A DNA stretch of 64,000 bases from Patescibacteria group bacterium. GTDB lineage: Bacteria > Patescibacteriota > Gracilibacteria > Peribacterales > Peribacteraceae. The stretch is from positions 13,316 to 77,315 of the forward strand of contig JAHIYH010000045.1 of the NCBI GenBank assembly GCA_018814875.1. The letters run 5' to 3'. A program made the translations under genes and the position numbers. This document shows, in pieces, positions 6,577 through 29,019 of this stretch (positions are counted from its first letter, which is position 1; each line of letters begins with the position of its first letter). A model generated the notes under the pieces. It saw only the letters and a program-made list of their open reading frames with translations. It made no database searches and was not told where the DNA came from.

Positions 6577-6747
6577 CCGGTCACTGACTCTGTAGCCGAC
6601 TGGTTCTATAAAGGGCTAAAGCCCAAAATACAAGTCGTTAACCCCGCGCTTACCTGTCGGCCATAGCCCATAGGCGAAGGCTGAAGCGCGGGGTTAACGC
6701 TAAAAAACTTGGGCTTTAGCCCATTTTCATGCAAACCCAGTGATCGG
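6577..6747. mobile_element. MITE-like palindromic element, copy 1
   Basis: terminal inverted repeats ccggtcactg / cagtgatcgg; long internal stem gggctaaagccc...gttaaccccgcgctt / aagcgcggggttaac...gggctttagccc; second inverted copy at 56671..56813. Confidence 0.6.
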
Positions 6748-23100: not shown

Positions 23101-23565
23101 CTATGTCAGAAGCTTGTTCGTACACGCTTCGAACCGATGGGTATGACTATTAACAAAGAAATCCCAATGGTAAAAAGCCTGATGGACTATCTCGGTAGAT
23201 GGCTTGCGCTCAAGTTTCTTCCACGTGAACAGGCAGAACAATTCCACAATAAGGATTTGGTAAATCTTGCTTATACTGAGGGGACCAAGAGTAAAGATGC
23301 ATTTGCGATGCGGCTTCCTGTTGTAGATGAGGGGGCACAAGCTCAGACTCCAAAGCTGGATTTCGAAACAGCAGTGGAAAAGAAGACACGCGAAGAGGTA
23401 GTAGAGGCTTCCGAAGAAGTTGGAATTGTAGAAACAAAACTTACTATGGCGCGCCAACAGGGATTCACAGGTTCTATGTGTGGGAACTGTGGTTCTCTTA
23501 GGGTTAAAGCAAATGGTTCTTGCGAAGTTTGTTTGGATTGTGGGGGGACCTCTGGTTGTAGTTAG
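20158..23565 (+). CDS. nrdJ: adenosylcobalamin-dependent (class II) ribonucleotide reductase
   Basis: 1135 aa; NPCSEY active-site region, long-type NrdJ layout, C-terminal CxxC...CxxC tail (CGNCGS...CEVCLDCGG). Confidence 0.9.
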   Translation: MEPSSATKSHSTPSSKAGNPSADMPKTEGKGLTIERRFTTPGSDPLEEVTYEKRRSCISNSDGSVVFEMDGAEIPVDWSQMATDIMVSKYFRKAEVPQVDEQGNVLKDDKGNVVTGPERSVKQVVRRLSGCWRHWGQQYNYFETAQDAQAFEDELSYMLVHQMAAPNSPQWFNTGLNYSYGITGPAQGHHYCDPKTGEVQQSMDAYTHPQPHACFIQSVSDDMVNPGGLMDLWVREARLFKYGSGTGTNFSEIRGFGEALSGGGVSSGLMSFLKIGDRAAGAIKSGGTTRRAAKMVTLNLDHPDIEEFIDWKVKEEKKVAAMAAAGYSTDFNSEAYQTVSGQNSNNSVRVPHSFFEQVEKDGDWDLYWRTELKCAAKEGRTPQSCKTLKARDLWEKIGYAAWACADPGVQYDTTINDWHTCPKDGRINASNPCSEYMFLDNTACNLASINLMKFYDEEHGTFELEKFKHAVRIWTIVLEISVLMAQFPSEEIAKLSYQFRTLGLGYANLGALLMRMGIPYDSDNGRALCAAITSILTGESYATSAEMAKHLGPFPRFEHNREDMLRVIRNHRRAAYNAPAAEYEELNALPVGIDQKICPADLLESAKECWDRALAQGEKNGFRNAQVSVIAPTGTIGLLMDCDTTGVEPDFALVKFKKLSGGGSMKIINQSVASSLKKLGHSEQEIYDIIRYVSGSLSLEGAPHINSQSLKDKGCTDEDIAQIEKTLPGVFELSFAFTRFILGDEAMERLGITSEQLDDPAFNLLKELGFSKKEIEEANIYICGHMTLEGAPYIKDENLAVFDCASKCGKDGRRYISAEGHIRMMAAVQPFITGSISKTINLPHEATVEDIKQAYFLSWKLGLKSNALYRDGCKLSQPLSVSSDKEKKELKEKKETKEVVERIVIKEVPRRRKLPDERMSITHKFSVAGHEGYLHVGLYEDGTPGEIFIKMSKEGSTLSGVMDTLALSLSMNLQYGVPLDVLCQKLVRTRFEPMGMTINKEIPMVKSLMDYLGRWLALKFLPREQAEQFHNKDLVNLAYTEGTKSKDAFAMRLPVVDEGAQAQTPKLDFETAVEKKTREEVVEASEEVGIVETKLTMARQQGFTGSMCGNCGSLRVKANGSCEVCLDCGGTSGCS

Positions 23566-23620
23566 TTGATTACTTGATACTCTGCGCTTAGCCCGCAGGC
23601 GTAGCGCAGACACCTTTAAA

Positions 23621-23968
23621 ATGGAAGAACTTGATATCCCCATTCTTCGCAAATGTTATGATCTTTATAAGACCTTTCACGGACTGCGCGGTCTTGTATC
23701 CAAAGCAGACCGTTATACTCTTTGGCAAAGGTCGGAAAATCTGATCTTGGATGTTATCGAAGGTATTCTGTTTGCAAGTCAGCTTCCTAAGGCTAAAAAG
23801 CTGCCACACTTGGAACAAGTGAGTATGAAACTCAATATGCTTCGTATTTTTCTGCGTCTCACAAAAGAAACAAAGATACTCGATCTTAAGAAGTGTCTCC
23901 TCTTACAAGAGATAGTCGACGAAATTGGTAGAATGCTTGGAGGATGGATGAAATCAGTGAAGGACTAA
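23621..23968 (+). CDS. avd: Avd-like accessory variability determinant (small basic four-helix-bundle protein)
   Basis: 115 aa, helical and Lys/Arg-rich, distant relative of the IVS-protein family; TR starts 47 nt after its stop codon. Confidence 0.7.
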   Translation: MEELDIPILRKCYDLYKTFHGLRGLVSKADRYTLWQRSENLILDVIEGILFASQLPKAKKLPHLEQVSMKLNMLRIFLRLTKETKILDLKKCLLLQEIVDEIGRMLGGWMKSVKD

Positions 23969-23996
23969 AAAACTCCCTCTGTCAGATTGGAGGGAG
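23966..23996 (-). terminator. rho-independent terminator of the TR-sense (minus strand) transcript
   Basis: minus strand reads ctccct-N12-agggag followed by TTTTTT; no T-run on the plus strand. Confidence 0.6.
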
Positions 23997-24014
23997 TAGT
24001 AGAGATGGGGAGAA

Positions 24015-24131
24015 GGACTGCCGAGCGGCCGACAACCACAAGTTGTCATTGCGATTGTCATCCAAGTTTCAGTTGACGTTCACGCGACCCTCGTTGATAT
24101 CGAGTTCGACGTAGTTGTCATCAGGGAGCGC
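24015..24131 (-). other. DGR template repeat (TR), 117 nt
   Basis: aligns gap-free to VR1 and VR2; the minus-sense TR has 29 A; in-frame reading gives ALPDDNYVELDINEGRVNVN*NLDDNRNDNLWLSAARQS (AAC-rich, contains a stop, so non-coding). Confidence 0.9.
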
Positions 24132-24291
24132 TATTTGCCCATTCCCTTCTAGGAGCACTGGAAGTCGAGGTTTACTGTCTTACGACCTATATCCTCTTCT
24201 CCCTGTATTTCATTTGGGAGCAATCCCGCGCATGCGGGATACCTCCACTAGAAATGAGCAAGAAGTTCTTCTCGATCTCAGCTCACTCGCT

Positions 24292-24538
24292 ATCGTGCTC
24301 CATAGAGACACGTTACTCTGGTGAGTTTCCACAATCGCTATCCGCTTAGTGGTAGCAGAGATGAGGTGCACTGCGAGACGAAATCGTAATCTCGGCTACA
24401 AAAGCATTGCACATATTGAGTATATCAAAAAAAGAACCCCCGCGAAAAAAATGTCGCGGAGGTTCCAGCCTTCGCCTATCGGCTACGGCCGGCAGGCAAG
24501 GTGTCAAAAGGGTCAAGCCCTCAAGACTTCAAGGTTCA
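24292..24538. repeat. conserved 3' flank of target gene 1 (copy a of ~247-bp repeat)
   Basis: about 6 mismatches in 247 nt versus 25437..25683 by hand alignment; contains terminator and GC-rich element 24466..24500. Confidence 0.85.
24427..24465 (-). terminator. rho-independent terminator of target gene 1
   Basis: minus strand gaacctccgcga-N8-tcgcgggggttc followed by TTTTTTT. Confidence 0.7.
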
Positions 24539-25225
24539 GGACTTCCGAGCGGCCGACAGCCACAAGTGGCCATAGCGACCGCCACCCAAGCCGCAGACGA
24601 CGACCACGCGACCCCCGTCGATATCGAGCGCGACGTAGTCGCCATCAGGGAGCGCTTCTTCGCAACGACACCAGTCGTTTCTCAGGAGATCGTCGCCAAC
24701 CTCCGTCAGATGGACAAGTAGGGCTGTCGCGGCGACACAAACAGGTGCCGGTTGCCATTCAGCGTCAATACCGGACAGATGTTCAGTCTGCTCACTCCAT
24801 TTTTTGCGGTTCGAGTTCGGAACAGGTAGTAGTAGACGGTAATAGCCCGACTCTGCTTTCCATTCGTGCTGCTCGTACCAGTCCTGATCTTGCATCATGC
24901 GCTCTTGTCCAGCTTTGCTTTCGCGCAGCTCTTTTAGACTCCAACCACCGTAATAGATGACGACTTCGCCATCTTCGGGCTTCGGAGTTGGGACGTTGCA
25001 CTCTGCAGGCAGACCGAGGATACGGCTTACCGCAGTAGCATCGTAGACGATGCCATGCTGGGGACATCCTGCTTGCATGTGACGGACGAGACGTTGCATT
25101 TGAGACGGATCATCAATGCTCGGCTGAAGATCAGTCGAGAGATCGAGACCCTGCTTAGCAGCGCGTTCTGCCCATGCCAGCAGCTTCTTGGTAACAGCAA
25201 ATTCGTCGACAATAGGGTTAGCCAT
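24536..25225 (-). CDS. DGR variable protein 1 (229 aa from the ATG with RBS)
   Basis: aaggag RBS before ATG 25225 (ORF-track start 25282 unlikely); C-terminal 39 codons are VR1; paralog of 25681..26355; no N-terminal hydrophobic segment. Confidence 0.85.
   Translation of the reverse strand: MANPIVDEFAVTKKLLAWAERAAKQGLDLSTDLQPSIDDPSQMQRLVRHMQAGCPQHGIVYDATAVSRILGLPAECNVPTPKPEDGEVVIYYGGWSLKELRESKAGQERMMQDQDWYEQHEWKAESGYYRLLLPVPNSNRKKWSEQTEHLSGIDAEWQPAPVCVAATALLVHLTEVGDDLLRNDWCRCEEALPDGDYVALDIDGGRVVVVCGLGGGRYGHLWLSAARKS
24539..24655 (-). other. DGR variable region VR1
   Basis: 20 substitutions versus TR, all at TR adenines, plus 1 non-A difference and 1 in the terminal GC-rich IMH-like segment (hand count); encodes ALPDGDYVALDIDGGRVVVVCGLGGGRYGHLWLSAARKS*. 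Confidence 0.9.
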
Positions 25226-25329
25226 TATCGTTCTCCTTTTGTCCTCAAACCGTGAGGAACGGGCTTGCTCGGAATGAGACAAGCATGCTACGCCCTTTCA
25301 AAGGCACAGGACGCTTGTCTCAGTGAGAC

Positions 25330-25437
25330 CTTGACGATGCTCTGAAAGACCATCATTATATAGTTTATAACTAAATTCATATCTGTCAATGTTCGATTTT
25401 GTCCTATACTGCCAAATCTGTTTGTAAATATGGTTAA
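25330..25437. repeat. 108-bp repeat, copy a (5' region of target 1)
   Basis: identical by eye to 26488..26595; carries TTGACG-N17-CATTAT on the plus strand. Confidence 0.85.
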
Positions 25438-25683
25438 TCGTGCTCCATAGAGACACGTTACTCTGGTGAGTTTCCACAATCGCTATCCGCTTAGTGGTAG
25501 CAGAGATGAGGTGCACTGCGAGACGAAATTGTAATCTCGGCTTCAATAGCATTACACATATCAAGTATATCAAAAAAAGAACCCCCGCGAAAAAAATGTC
25601 GCGGAGGTTCCAGCCTTCGCCTATCGGCTACGGCCGGCAGGCAAGGTGTCAAAAGGGTCAAGCCCTCAAGACTTCAAGGTTCA
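25437..25683. repeat. conserved 3' flank of target gene 2 (copy b)
   Basis: see 24292..24538. Confidence 0.85.
25572..25610 (-). terminator. rho-independent terminator of target gene 2
   Basis: same hairpin plus T-run as 24427..24465. Confidence 0.7.
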
Positions 25684-26355
25684 GGACTTCCGAGCGGCCG
25701 ACAACCACAAGTTGCCACGGCGATTGCCATCCAAGAAGCAGTAGACGTACACGCGACCCTCGTGGATATCGAGTACGACGTAGAGGCCATCAGGGAGCGC
25801 CTCTTCGCAACGACACCAGTCGTTTTTGAGAAGATCGTTTCTGGTCTCCTTCAAATGAACGAGCAGGGTGGAAGCGCAGAGTGCAACTGGAGCAACTTCT
25901 TCACCAGGCAGAAGGAGATCCTTCTGTTCGGTTAAGTTTTTCCTGTTGCTGTCCGGCACTGGCAAACGGACACGGTAGATGCCCGCCGTCAGCTTCGCAC
26001 TTGCGCAGTCGTACTTGTCGTACCAATCCTGCTGGTGCATCAGCTCCTTGCCGACCTCACAGTCACGCAGATCTTGCAAAGACCAGTCTCCGACGCGGAT
26101 AATGATCTCGTCAGGTGCGGGTTCTGGGAGCGGTTCCGTACTCGCTTCTCCGAAGCCGAGGATTGCAATGGCATCGTAGGTGAAGGACGGAAGTCGCACC
26201 GGCCACACGTCTGCAAGACGTTGCATAGAAGCAGCGTCAGCGTCGAGCATGGCAAGCCATCGCTCTGGCGTGATACCCGCCTCTTGGAGTCGCTTTAGGC
26301 CTGTCGTAATCTTCTTCTGTGGCAGACCAGTCAAGCTTGTTGCGGCGGTCTTCAT
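25681..26355 (-). CDS. DGR variable protein 2 (224 aa)
   Basis: aaggag RBS; C-terminal VR2; roughly half of residues shared with protein 1 over the C-terminal ~150 aa (GDWSL..L, QDWY, LPVP.SNRK, NDWCRCEEALPDG). Confidence 0.85.
   Translation of the reverse strand: MKTAATSLTGLPQKKITTGLKRLQEAGITPERWLAMLDADAASMQRLADVWPVRLPSFTYDAIAILGFGEASTEPLPEPAPDEIIIRVGDWSLQDLRDCEVGKELMHQQDWYDKYDCASAKLTAGIYRVRLPVPDSNRKNLTEQKDLLLPGEEVAPVALCASTLLVHLKETRNDLLKNDWCRCEEALPDGLYVVLDIHEGRVYVYCFLDGNRRGNLWLSAARKS
25684..25800 (-). other. DGR variable region VR2
   Basis: 14 substitutions versus TR, all at TR adenines, plus the shared IMH-like difference; encodes ALPDGLYVVLDIHEGRVYVYCFLDGNRRGNLWLSAARKS*. Confidence 0.9.
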
Positions 26356-26487
26356 GAGATTCTCCTTTACCCCTTAGGGGCATACAAGTATTACCGATTG
26401 TACCGTCGGCTCGGACTTACTCGGAAACGAGACAAGCACCCTATGCACTGCAAAAAATACACAGAGCGCTTGTCTCTTTACATGAAT

Positions 26488-26595
26488 CTTGACGATGCTC
26501 TGAAAGACCATCATTATATAGTTTATAACTAAATTCATATCTGTCAATGTTCGATTTTGTCCTATACTGCCAAATCTGTTTGTAAATATGGTTAA
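26488..26595. repeat. 108-bp repeat, copy b (divergent region between target 2 and RT)
   Basis: identical by eye to 25330..25437. Confidence 0.85.
26489..26517 (+). promoter_or_regulatory. candidate promoter for the RT gene
   Basis: TTGACG - 17 nt - CATTAT, about 85 nt upstream of RT ATG; the same motif is duplicated at 25331..25359. Confidence 0.4.
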
Positions 26596-26603
26596 ATGAA
26601 CAA

Positions 26604-27653
26604 ATGAAAGTATATAGAAACATCTTTGAACGGATCATTTCGATGGAGAACATTTTTACTGCGTGGGAGGAGTTTCGTAAAGGAAAGCAAGCACGAATGG
26701 ATGTGCAGCAGTTTGAGCGCCACCTTGAACAAAATCTTTTTCAATTACACAGGGAACTTTCGGGCGGCACCTATAAACATCAACCCTATAGTGCCTTTAC
26801 AATCTGTGATCCAAAACAACGTCATATTCACAAAGCATCTGTTCGTGATCGTATCGTTCACCATGCCGTATTCTCTGTTCTCAATCCGATTTTCGAGCCG
26901 ACGTTTATTGCTCATTCTTTCTCGTGTAGAAAGGACAAAGGTACACACAAAGCAGTAGATGCGCTGGAACGAATGTTGCGTAAGGAAAGCAGAAATAATA
27001 GCCGTACCTGTTTTGCCCTTCAGTGTGATATCAGCAAATTTTTCGATTCTGTGTCGCACCCAATTCTAAAATCCCAGATCACAAAGCGCATCCGTGATAG
27101 AGATGTCCTCTTACTGATGGATGAAATAATCGGTAGCTTCACTGCTCCGCAATTCGATACCGTTTCGCAGTCTGGCATTCCCATTGGGAATCTCACGTCA
27201 CAGCTCTTTGCCAACGTGTACCTCAATGCCTTGGATCAATTTATGAAGCATGAATTGAAGGTATGTCACTATGCACGCTACACTGACGATTTTGTGATCG
27301 TATCTACAGATCGTGTGTATCTACAATCTCTCATTAAGACTATTGGATCATTCCTCCAACAGGAACTTTCTCTTGATCTGCATCCACGCAAGGTCACAAT
27401 CCGAAAGTTCACACAGGGTATAGATTTTCTTGGATATGTACTTCTTCCTCATCATCGGGTTCTGCGCACACGCACAAAACATCGCATGTTTCGCAAGCTT
27501 CATAAGAGGGCATCGATACATAAAACAGGATCGGAAACCGCTGAAAGTGTTGAGCAATCTCTGTATTCGTATCTTGGTGTTCTCTCTCATGCCAACACCT
27601 ACAGGCTTCGCTCCAAACTTCTCAATCATTATTGGTTCTGGATGACGGAGTAG
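26604..27653 (+). CDS. DGR-type reverse transcriptase
   Basis: RT motifs 1-7 with IGNLTSQ (the I/LGxxxSQ DGR signature in place of the group II QGxxxSP) and YTDDF (YxDD); 349 aa, no maturase or endonuclease domain. Confidence 0.9.
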   Translation: MKVYRNIFERIISMENIFTAWEEFRKGKQARMDVQQFERHLEQNLFQLHRELSGGTYKHQPYSAFTICDPKQRHIHKASVRDRIVHHAVFSVLNPIFEPTFIAHSFSCRKDKGTHKAVDALERMLRKESRNNSRTCFALQCDISKFFDSVSHPILKSQITKRIRDRDVLLLMDEIIGSFTAPQFDTVSQSGIPIGNLTSQLFANVYLNALDQFMKHELKVCHYARYTDDFVIVSTDRVYLQSLIKTIGSFLQQELSLDLHPRKVTIRKFTQGIDFLGYVLLPHHRVLRTRTKHRMFRKLHKRASIHKTGSETAESVEQSLYSYLGVLSHANTYRLRSKLLNHYWFWMTE

Positions 27654-27678
27654 CACTATTTGGTGGTAAACTAAAAAC

Positions 27679-28641: not shown

Positions 28642-29019
28642 TTACTTATTAAGTATGCCAGATCGAAATTTATTGAGTAGATAACTAACTTTTCCAACTT
28701 GATTGTTGAGTTCCTCGTATTGTTCTGCGGTGATGTAATCTAATCTTGAGCTAAGCGAGAGTTGGTAGTCCAATTCTTCCAATGAACCTTCGGCATGCTC
28801 AAGATAGTGAAGTCGCTCCTTATTTGAGCGTTTCGTATTGCCTTCAACAATGTTGGTCGGGACACTTGTGGCAGATCGTCTTATCTGCGCACAGAGAGCA
28901 TATCGTTCTTCAGGAGGAAATTTAGGAAGTAATTTATAAACTTCGAGACAGAGTGCATCTGCCTCTTTCCAAACAATCAAATTCTGATAAGGGCGTTTTC
29001 TCATAGAAAAGTTATTCAC
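28642..29019 (-). CDS. four-helix-bundle protein (23S rRNA IVS protein family)
   Basis: LIVWKEADALCLEVY...QIRRSATSVPTNIVEG motif; GTG start. Confidence 0.85.
   Translation of the reverse strand: MNNFSMRKRPYQNLIVWKEADALCLEVYKLLPKFPPEERYALCAQIRRSATSVPTNIVEGNTKRSNKERLHYLEHAEGSLEELDYQLSLSSRLDYITAEQYEELNNQVGKVSYLLNKFRSGILNK

Follow-up and report, generated by a model that had tools for sequence, protein, structure and literature searches.

Near-identical flanks around two divergent target genes in a tandem diversity-generating retroelement array of Candidatus Peregrinibacteria

Two neighbouring target genes of a diversity-generating retroelement (DGR) in a Candidatus Peregrinibacteria genome have diverged deeply in their coding regions, and the non-coding blocks that border them are identical or nearly so. 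The best explanation as a whole, which is considered probable, is that the genes lie in a tandem unit, that their bodies are old paralogues and that their flanks have been homogenized by recombination in addition to selection. The anatomy of the array, the concerted as opposed to orthologous site patterns, the mosaicism among loci and the RNA covariation described below are direct observations. Coordinates refer to the window, the 64-kb stretch of DNA that was analysed.

The retroelement and its target genes

The locus is a DGR with a reverse transcriptase (RT), two targets, one template repeat (TR) and the accessory gene bAvd. The RT gene (26604-27653, plus strand, 349 aa) matches Pfam RVT_1 with E=5e-22 and its translation contains IGNLTSQ, which conforms to the DGR-type motif [ILV]GxxxSQ; an exact look-up of the RT protein of the window returned no record. 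The bAvd gene (23621-23968, plus strand; Pfam bAvd PF22296, E=1.7e-15) is convergent with the TR (24014-24131, minus strand), and the RT lies 2.5 kb away on the opposite strand. The TR belongs to a three-copy repeat family that includes both VRs and shows adenine-specific mismatches: 20 of the 22 mismatches between VR a and the TR, and 14 of the 15 between VR b and the TR, fall at TR adenines.

Both targets are encoded on the minus strand. Target gene b (25681-26355, 224 aa) carries VR b at 25683-25800, and target gene a (24536-25225, 229 aa), which corresponds to P0056, carries VR a at 24538-24655. No Pfam domain was found in either target protein or among the 71 homologues of target b. The orthologue of target a in locus L001 is P0065, and the closest relatives of target a outside L001 are merely 55-63% identical. 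The VR lies at the 3' end of the target ORF and is followed by the IMH (25702-25681, minus strand, including the stop codon, in copy b), which differs from the IMH* after the TR; the VR ends in ...GTCGGCCGCTCGGAAGTCCTGA and the TR in ...GTCGGCCGCTCGGCAGTCCTTC. When orthologous targets of the window and L001 are compared, the VRs differ at many sites and the gene bodies are ~98% identical.

A tandem unit with a single junction

The flanking blocks were compared using a repeat finder and global alignment. A first-pass annotation of the window had counted about six differences in the ~247 bp downstream of the two genes, and the alignment of 24292-24538 with 25437-25683 gives exactly six (241/247 positions identical), located at 24385, 24398, 24402, 24409, 24417 and 24418 and thus all inside 34 nt. 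The 108-bp upstream blocks (25330-25437 and 26488-26595), which had been described as looking identical, agree at 108/108 positions. Position 25437 is common to both kinds of block, giving a junction overlap of 1 nt. The coding divergence claimed for the DNA between these flanks is also borne out: proteins a and b are 46% identical overall and 37% identical without the last 55 codons, and the genes share 45% of third codon positions and 33% of four-fold sites (n=30 sites), a level that represents saturation. Identity in the flanks is therefore clearly above, rather than at or below, that of synonymous sites. High a/b identity extends ~160 nt into the 3' coding end (VR and pre-VR), where 97% of third positions agree, both VRs being copied from one TR. 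Upstream of this end, the two gene bodies are deep paralogues rather than a recently diverged pair, in line with the occurrence of a-like targets in the single-target DGRs L150 and L151.

This arrangement indicates that a 1.15-kb tandem unit has the two blocks at its ends and that its copies are joined once, at 25437. Because the RT-side breakpoint is 8 nt from the RT start, the putative 108-bp divergent RT/target promoter forms the end of each unit. The other breakpoint falls inside an RNA leader of ~280 nt directly 5' of the TR, 135 nt from the leader's start, so that each unit opens with the VR end, followed by the terminator and the initial 135 nt of the leader. In the proposed mechanism, one illegitimate join (minus strand, ...GGAGCACGAT joined to TAACCATATT..., 25437) would have inserted a second target module between target b and the TR. 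Such a module is made up of a promoter, a 5' UTR, an ORF whose C-terminal part is the VR, an IMH, a small hairpin and a terminator. The TR-adjacent copy of the leader is the only complete one, and the copy after target b would be a truncated passenger.

Comparison with other loci supports the position of the breakpoints. In the single-target relative L002 the 108-bp block abuts the RT start, and in L002, L003, L012 and others the 135-nt segment runs unbroken into the region regarded as 'unique' in the window and on into the TR. Contiguity of each half with its own functional neighbour (the RT start for one, the remainder of the leader and the TR for the other) in single-target loci is the signature of a tandem duplication junction. 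It also counts against the view that the contiguous 355 bp at 25330-25683, in which the 108-bp block meets the 247-bp block at the centre of the array, constitute a mobile or dispersed (MITE-like) repeat with partial copies at the outer positions. As the 64-kb window contains no further copy, copies occur solely where a tandem duplication predicts them and none was found away from DGRs among 151 loci, this view is given almost no weight. An independent tandem duplication, with other breakpoints, is present in L010, L013 and L018.

The contig is metagenome-assembled and its repeats are long and near-identical, so that a chimera, created through the repeats from two strain variants of one single-target locus, has to be considered. 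Such an artefact is extremely improbable, since the same two-target array, with the same junction and the same a/b pair, occurs in L001, an independent assembly (ERZ24794679) from another sample and with a different genomic neighbourhood, and since genes that are just 46% identical are not strain variants.

The non-coding parts of the array can be assigned in some detail. The RT-side copy of the 108-bp block (26488-26595) comprises the putative divergent promoter region and the first ~22 nt of the target 5' UTR; the copy upstream of target a (25330-25437) is orthologous to L001 5884-5991, with three differences. Consensus matching locates a candidate minus-strand promoter, TTGACA-16-TAAACT, at 26547-26520 and a candidate plus-strand promoter, CTGTCA-16-TATACT, at 26541-26568, 36 nt before the RT ATG. 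The -35 element is kept in nearly all loci aligned there (it reads TTGACAT in one), and the proximal 22 nt of the block, GGTCTTTCAGAGCATCGTCAAG (26509-26488), are nearly invariant in 18 target loci. The 5' UTR of target b (26356-26487, minus strand), of a type that is 84-94% identical in L001-L009, contains a long conserved hairpin (26476-26429; GAGACAAGC...GCTTGTCTC) that is kept in 18/18 loci. The 5' UTR of target a (25229-25329, minus strand) is 100% identical to L001 5992-6092, and its hairpin (25322-25275) is the a-type version of that in the target b UTR.

In the 247-bp block downstream of target b (25437-25683, minus strand), the IMH and stop codon are followed by a small hairpin at 25669-25649, a palindromic insertion of 32 nt at 25642-25611, an intrinsic terminator at 25611-25572 and the truncated leader copy X135(b) (25571-25437, minus strand), which ends at the duplication junction without the 3' strand of helix 3 and without helices 5-9. 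The proximal part of the block after target a (24427-24538, minus strand) has the same order: the stop codon with the end of the IMH, then a small conserved hairpin at 24524-24504, then the 32-nt insertion at 24497-24466 and finally the terminator at 24466-24427. A terminator scan identified both terminators on the minus strand as a 13-bp stem followed by TTTTTT (24466-24433 and 25611-25578); the stem is identical in 15/16 Peribacteria loci, with one G-to-A change in L102. Among the cis-elements that had been suggested for these flanks, the terminator and the promoter core are conserved across many genomes. The 'post-VR hairpin' of the first-pass annotation was probably the GC-rich palindrome between stop codon and terminator, which is no conserved cis-element: it is the 32-nt insertion specific to this genome, missing from L001 and L002, and the element occurs elsewhere in other genomes. 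The hairpin that is conserved after the VR is instead the small stem at 24524-24504.

Recombination and selection in the flanks

Site patterns were analysed in a quartet formed by copies a and b of the window and of L001, the only sister genome. The gene body contains 53 orthology-type sites and no concerted site, whereas the downstream flank contains 33 concerted sites (one 32-nt indel and one SNP) and no orthology-type site. Only two genomes with this array were found, and concerted evolution of the downstream flank amounts to two independent events; the shared 32-nt element could also represent two insertions at identical target sites, with no copying by conversion. The upstream blocks are 73% alike in L001, as against 108/108 in the window. 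The extent of the tracts differs as well: copy a of L001 has b-type sequence for ~45 nt upstream of the VR, which copy a of the window does not have.

The RT-side block of the window is mosaic. Distally it equals L002, with 0-1 mismatch per 60 nt, and proximally it carries the a-type derived GATGGTC at a place where L002 and most other loci have GTGTTC. In the downstream flank, four of the six differences in copy b match the haplotype of L002, L012 and L019, and all six lie at unpaired or wobble-compatible positions. Identity within the genome does not exceed that between genomes over the whole repeat: in the 135-nt segment the two window copies are 129/135 alike and copy a agrees with either L001 copy at 134/135 positions. 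Homogenization is thus patchy, and the identity of the 135-nt segment, which bears no sign of within-genome homogenization, is explicable by selection and recency alone.

Selection on elements of the flanks is evident from their conservation in many genomes, which covers the terminator, the promoter core, the beginning of the 5' UTR and the 135-nt segment. The leader stays 75-99% identical among loci in which the target proteins drop to 35-56%. Purifying selection on cis-elements as the sole cause of the identity, with zero gene conversion, would also accord with the conservation seen in the terminator, the promoter -35 and the UTR start and over most of the 135-nt segment. This explanation is very unlikely. 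Orthologous functional copies elsewhere differ by 5-25%, so that identity is not needed for function; relatives do without the 32-nt insertion that both window copies carry; within the 108-bp block, the distal 45 nt are identical although the a position has no RT gene for them to serve; and both the 73% likeness of the L001 upstream blocks and the concerted pattern of the indel and SNP contradict it.

The proposal that the flanks reflect either selection or conversion limited to them is supported, with refinements. Both processes operate, as indicated by the 33 concerted sites in the flank versus none in the gene body and by the conservation across genomes, but the strict limit to non-coding DNA does not hold, since the L001 tract goes ~45 nt further, into the coding region. 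The data support gene conversion or homologous recombination as the process that makes the flanks near-identical, with selection acting on elements within them. In the proposed sequence of events, the gene bodies and UTRs would be old paralogues, and the flanks would be kept alike by homologous recombination and gene conversion, which would involve the two copies themselves as well as alleles at related DGR loci. Tracts would end where similarity stops, and recombination would be superimposed on purifying selection on the promoter core, UTR start, IMH, terminator and leader.

A possible although doubtful alternative is that a whole b-type module was recently duplicated in tandem, after which the UTR and body of one copy were swapped for a divergent allele from another DGR lineage by homologous recombination in the conserved flanks, with no old duplication followed by homogenization. 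Mosaicism is extensive (the RT/promoter side of the window matches L002 and the target region matches L001), a-like targets also occur in single-target DGRs (L150 and L151), and both flanks of gene a are of the resident b-lineage type while its UTR and body are not. However, no donor with a close a-type gene was found, the best being 61-63% identical, and on present data the outcome is indistinguishable from that of conversion. As such a swap also requires recombination confined to the flanks, it is a variant of the explanation by old paralogues with homogenized flanks and not its opposite.

Concerted evolution of tandem or dispersed duplicates by gene conversion is a general bacterial phenomenon, exemplified by tuf genes and rRNA operons. 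The present array resembles these cases in its within-genome shared derived changes, sharp identity boundaries and lineage-specific tract ends. It differs in that the homogenized parts are regulatory and RNA flanks together with the VR end; the coding bodies would escape homogenization because they are too diverged to recombine, and the VR is homogenized by a different route, namely retrohoming from the TR. Multi-target cassettes account for ~15% of DGRs (Wu et al., 2018, PMC5758913). The array is similar to them in having two adjacent targets, each with a C-terminal VR and IMH, that share one TR, and in that the target genes change faster than the DGR core. Flank homogenization and duplication breakpoints are not described in that survey, whereas the unit, the junction and the tracts are directly readable here.

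The structured leader 5' of the TR

The 135-nt segment after the terminator (24292-24426) had been left without an assigned function. Alignment and covariation indicate that this segment forms the 5' portion of a conserved, structured leader on the presumed TR transcript (24135-24427, minus strand), with nine helices between 24412 and 24135. The structure was derived from an alignment of 16 close loci (A1) and a deeper alignment (A2), and the A2 structure was adopted; A1 helices 219-257 and 111-386 were superseded by the better-supported A2 helices 189-235 and 264-435. Compensatory changes occur in 37/58 pairs, compared with 21.7+-2.2 in shuffles and 9-15 in slid controls, and 96.8% of cells are paired. 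The strand of the leader is fixed because conserved G-U pairs are present. A protein-coding role of the 135-nt segment (ORF 24210-24371, minus strand) is ruled out by 1-nt and 30-nt indels in relatives. Mapping with nhmmer shows that the leader recurs in DGRs of several candidate-phyla-radiation (CPR) phyla (Peribacteria, Paceibacterota, Saccharibacteria and Parcubacteria). Rfam searches produced no DGR/RT motif at E<=10 in 23400-27000 or at E<=1 in four related loci. The Rfam matches that did appear are attributable to chance (sau-5971, E=0.74; a plant miRNA, E=0.025).

The leader is presumably transcribed together with the TR from an extended -10-like element, TGATATACT (24427-24419, minus strand), after the terminator; a sigma-70 scan did not pick up this promoter, which is read from the sequence alone. 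On the other side of the TR, the 3' flank (23967-24020, minus strand) contains CAGTCCTTCTCC (24020-24009), which is complementary to the leader linker (24278-24262), and the MFE fold places a terminal hairpin and U-run at 23997-23967. For most of 23 loci, the energy of the duplex between linker and 3' flank has a z-score between -2 and -4.6. When the alignment is read column by column, 78.7% of cells pair; compensatory changes are few, covariation is weak and the register shifts in distant loci. The leader linker may pair with the TR 3' flank, and the leader as a whole is proposed to serve the RT-Avd complex.

A close point of comparison is the DGR RNA of Bordetella phage BPP-1 (avd 3' end, TR and spacer Sp; Rfam motif RT-10). 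In both systems the TR directly adjoins a structured non-coding RNA, and a stem-loop lies just 3' of the TR. Potential pairing between the sequences on either side of the TR would be a further point in common. In BPP-1, ~300 nt upstream of the TR matter for retrohoming (PMC6182149; bioRxiv 10.1101/2023.10.23.563531; PMC5737381). In contrast to BPP-1, the large structured part here (~280 nt) is non-coding and lies 5' of the TR, with a predicted scaffold role; the TR is followed by ~55 nt and then a terminator-like hairpin; RT and avd are on the other strand; and neither RT-10 nor any other Rfam family matches. A literature search, of incomplete coverage, returned no description of a 5' leader in CPR DGRs.

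The leader may be a scaffold of the DGR RNA that sits on the 5' side of the TR and not on its 3' side. A tentative extension of this idea, to which we give somewhat less than even weight, is that it represents a new class of DGR RNA in which a 5' scaffold brackets the TR, recruits RT-Avd and takes part in priming, with the truncated copy as a natural dissection. By analogy, the leader would take the role that the 3' spacer (Sp) has in the Bordetella phage paradigm, and it would provide the nucleotide used for priming or bring it into place. Behind target b, the truncated copy retains helices 1, 2 and 4 and the promoter-like element without a TR; it might function as a decoy, or the mRNA of target a might use it as an alternative leader.

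Taken by itself, the flank identity is unremarkable: recombination keeps a tandem duplication homogeneous. The array nevertheless illustrates how DGR cassettes gain and reshuffle targets, with the conserved promoter and VR-terminator-leader modules serving as homology arms between which protein bodies can diverge or be exchanged. The leader is the more useful product of the analysis. The mechanism of DGR RNA is known almost wholly from one phage element, in which the essential RNA is 3' of the TR, and the published cross-taxon survey looked no further than 40 nt upstream of the TR. Across CPR DGRs, a structure on the 5' side of the TR that is supported by covariation offers a testable alternative architecture for a large, uncultivated share of DGRs.

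Gene content and cassette of the retroelement

The locus is a diversity-generating retroelement (DGR). Its + strand encodes a reverse transcriptase (RT; 26604–27653; Pfam RVT_1, E = 5e-22; DGR-type motif IGNLTSQ) and a bAvd protein (23621–23968; Pfam match), and its − strand carries two ORFs with no Pfam domain, a (24536–25225) and b (25681–26355), whose protein homologues carry the annotation Candidatus Peregrinibacteria or Peribacteria. A 118-nt sequence is present at the 3' end of ORF b (25683–25800), at the 3' end of ORF a (24538–24655) and at 24014–24131. Mismatches between the last copy and the ORF copies lie at adenines of 24014–24131 in 20 of 22 cases for a and 14 of 15 for b; this copy is therefore the template repeat (TR), and ORFs a and b, each ending in a variable repeat (VR), are targets of that one TR. 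By all sequence criteria that were testable the system is a regular DGR. The survey of Wu et al. found that TR and RT may lie on different strands and that ∼15% of DGRs have several targets (PMC5758913).

The ∼4-kb cassette from avd to RT (23566–27678) has unrelated neighbour genes in each genome: RNR in the window, a serine recombinase and an MmeI-type enzyme in L001 (a sister two-target array, ERZ24794679), UvrB and PemK in L002 (a single-target relative) and RF-1 in the related locus L003. Similarity between these genomes ends at the cassette edges, suggesting movement or exchange of the entire cassette as one unit. A second four-helix-bundle gene (28642–29019, − strand; 23S_rRNA_IVP, E = 1e-35, with a weaker bAvd match) lies 1 kb past the RT gene.

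Tandem duplication and concerted evolution of the target flanks

The first-pass annotation had claimed that the flanks of the two targets are near-identical while the coding regions have diverged, and alignment confirms this. The 247-bp copies (24292–24538 and 25437–25683) show exactly six differences (at 24385, 24398, 24402, 24409, 24417 and 24418) and the 108-bp copies (25330–25437 and 26488–26595) are completely identical, whereas proteins a and b have 37% of residues in common outside the VR end. Flank identity also exceeds synonymous identity, third codon positions being 45% identical and four-fold sites 33% (saturated). These differences are not random decay: at four of them copy b has the L002/L012/L019 haplotype, and all six fall at unpaired or wobble-compatible positions of the leader RNA structure described below.

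The two blocks meet at 25437. On the minus strand the order is 108-bp block, 5' UTR b, gene b, 247-bp block, 108-bp block, 5' UTR a, gene a, 247-bp block, a 160-nt 'unique' stretch and TR; a 1.15-kb unit has been duplicated in tandem here, leaving one junction, ...GGAGCACGAT|TAACCATATT.... The breakpoints can be read because in single-target relatives each block is contiguous with its neighbour: in L002 the 108-bp block leads directly to the RT start, and a search of related genomes found the 135-nt segment that ends the 247-bp block (24292–24426 and 25437–25571) ahead of TR in L002, L003, L012 and about a dozen more loci, running unbroken into the 'unique' stretch. The 108-bp block contains divergent, overlapping promoter-like sites, one predicted to face the target (TTGACA-16-TAAACT) and one the RT (CTGTCA-16-TATACT, 36 nt upstream of the RT ATG), together with the opening 22 nt of the target gene's 5' UTR, GGTCTTTCAGAGCATCGTCAAG, which are near-invariant in 18 loci with very different targets. 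The 247-bp block comprises, in order, the stop codon and IMH end, a small conserved hairpin (24524–24504), a 32-nt GC-rich palindrome (24497–24466), an intrinsic terminator (24466–24427) and the 135-nt segment. A separate tandem duplication in L010, L013 and L018 has other breakpoints (within the RT gene and 24 nt past the 135-nt segment), and target-module duplication is therefore recurrent in this DGR clade. This duplication, seen also in L011 and present in at least three separate assemblies, spans a 5' fragment of the RT gene (predicted as an RT ORF of 311 aa), the target and the 135-nt segment plus 24 nt; both target proteins are identical including VR, and it is either very recent or in part an assembly effect.

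L001, an independent assembly from another sample and another genomic neighbourhood, has the same array and junction. It is ∼98% identical to the window over 26280–24740 with VRs excluded, ∼85% in RT and ∼50% in the RT-side promoter. Sites were classified in a four-way alignment of both copies from the window and from L001, the only sister array found. The gene body yielded 53 orthology-type sites (a with a, b with b) and no genome-grouped sites, and the flank, taken from the stop codon through the 135-nt segment, yielded no orthology-type and 33 concerted sites, the latter consisting of the 32-nt palindrome (in both window copies and neither L001 copy) and one SNP. The L001 a copy has b-type sequence for ∼45 nt upstream of VR where the window a copy retains its own; this stretch is a conversion tract with an end point unlike that in the window. 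Evidence from the upstream side is comparable. The two upstream blocks of L001 are only 73% identical to each other. The RT-side block of the window has 0–1 mismatch per 60 nt relative to L002 across both the RT 5' end and the block's distal part; its proximal part carries a derived a-type GATGGTC, the sequence being GTGTTC in L002 and most other loci.

Outside L001 the nearest relatives of gene a are 55–63% identical and some belong to single-target DGRs (L150 and L151), which indicates that a and b are old lineages rather than products of recent divergence in place. The array could have arisen either by old duplication with later flank conversion or by recent module duplication with later body replacement, and both histories rest on one process. 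Homologous recombination between copies and with related alleles probably homogenises those parts still alike enough to recombine, and the UTR and gene body escape as too diverged. The earlier interpretation, selection on cis-elements or gene conversion in the flanks, is supported with refinement. Selection alone cannot explain the identity, since functional orthologous flanks of other genomes differ by 5–25% and the 32-nt insertion common to both window copies is dispensable in relatives. The identity of the flanks exemplifies regular concerted evolution, and its mechanism is ordinary.

Dispersed palindrome, target 5' UTR and orphan targets

The GC-rich palindrome (GCCTGCCGGCCGTAGCCGATAGGCGAAGGCTG and variants) occupies different sites among genomes, often in or beside terminator hairpins. 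It has three matches in the window (24466–24497, 25611–25642 and ∼6653–6687; none expected by chance), and occurs elsewhere just past the target stop in L003, in the terminator loop of L006 and within the leader of L104 and L120. It resembles a very small insertion element dispersed in Peribacteria. Because it is found at these other sites, its presence in both window flanks might reflect two insertions instead of copying by conversion.

All target genes of the clade, orphans included, have a common 5' UTR (26429–26509 and 25275–25351 in the window; alignment A3, 18 loci), with a near-invariant start, TTCTTTCAGAGCATCGTCAAG, and a long hairpin, GAGACAAGC...GCTTGTCTC. The hairpin is highly conserved in sequence, with covariation in two pairs only, and the UTR could be a regulatory leader. 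The orphan loci L006/L122 (JACKFU010000001.1), L007 and L008 hold a b-type target with promoter, UTR and terminator and lack RT, leader and TR; a 36-residue avd remnant lies ∼100 nt past the terminator. Each is a decayed DGR still holding its target.

A structured leader RNA upstream of the template repeat

The stretch from target terminator to TR is better conserved than the surrounding proteins: the 135-nt segment is 75–99% and the 'unique' stretch 78–90% identical where targets are only 35–56% identical to a or b. A multi-helix consensus structure from 16 Peribacteria loci was sharpened by eight more distant loci (where organism-labelled, Paceibacterota, Saccharibacteria, Parcubacteria and further Peribacteria/Peregrinibacteria MAGs), giving nine helices and 58 pairs with 96.8% of cells paired. 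Compensatory changes occur in 37 of these pairs (21.7 ± 2.2 in shuffles, 9–15 with slid partners), and doubly changed cells number 174, compared with 47 in shuffles. The strand is fixed by conserved G-U pairs as the window minus strand, the TR sense strand. The structure spans 24412–24135, ending 3 nt short of TR, so that the 135-nt segment, previously considered to have no assigned function, forms the 5' part of a conserved TR leader RNA whose fold is supported by covariation. An Rfam search of the window locus and four related loci gave no match to RT-10 or any other family.

Immediately past the terminator U-run, TGATATACT (24427–24419) reads by eye, rather than from a scan, as a putative extended −10 element; the TAnnnT motif is retained at this position in most loci. 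Only ∼55 nt lie downstream of TR, comprising a flank (24020–24009) and a terminal hairpin with U-run (23997–23967). This flank and the leader linker (24278–24262) are complementary, with a duplex energy better than shuffles in most of 23 loci (z −2 to −4.6) and compensatory-looking changes in L099 (GGGAC:GUCCC) and L105/L109 (GGAAGU:ACUUCC); the column-wise test is weak and the register is shifted in distant loci. In the post-TR hairpin of several loci, the 5' arm includes a (CT)n run whose length varies (L023, L025, L102, L103 and L104; columns ∼585–610 of leader alignments A1 and A2), which looks like a simple-repeat expansion inside a structural element.

The duplication breakpoint at 24292 cuts the leader past helix 4 and ahead of the 3' strand of helix 3 (GTGAG, 24286–24282); consequently the copy after gene b, which is without TR, retains helices 1, 2 and 4 together with a hairpin specific to Peribacteria, and cannot form helices 3 and 5–9. 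Gene b has only these first 135 nt of leader downstream, yet its VR still has adenine-site differences from TR and is not the same in the window as in L001, and the leader is absent beside the orphan targets L006–L008. The leader is therefore tied to TR and not to VR.

In the Bordetella phage DGR the RNA for cDNA synthesis consists of a short upstream piece, TR and a ∼140-nt 3' spacer that envelops RT, overlies Avd and supplies an internal adenosine as primer (PMC6182149; bioRxiv 10.1101/2023.10.23.563531); the Rfam RT-10 motif covers this spacer (PMC5737381). Full retrohoming in vivo requires ∼300 nt upstream of TR (PMC6182149), and a cross-taxon survey took in the 40 nt before TR and the 100 nt after it (bioRxiv 10.1101/2023.10.23.563531). 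In contrast to the phage, the large structured part here lies 5' of TR, and the RNA organization is a variant in this respect; no description of a DGR RNA structured 5' of TR was found in the literature searched, the coverage of which was incomplete. With nhmmer, the leader's 3' half has partial, weaker matches beside more distant avd genes, including one outside the CPR (L118, a Rhabdochlamydiaceae MAG) and others on unlabelled metagenome contigs (L035, L037, L045, L053–L055 and L083). The distribution of the leader RNA may be wider than the CPR, and it is the part of the locus worth experimental work.
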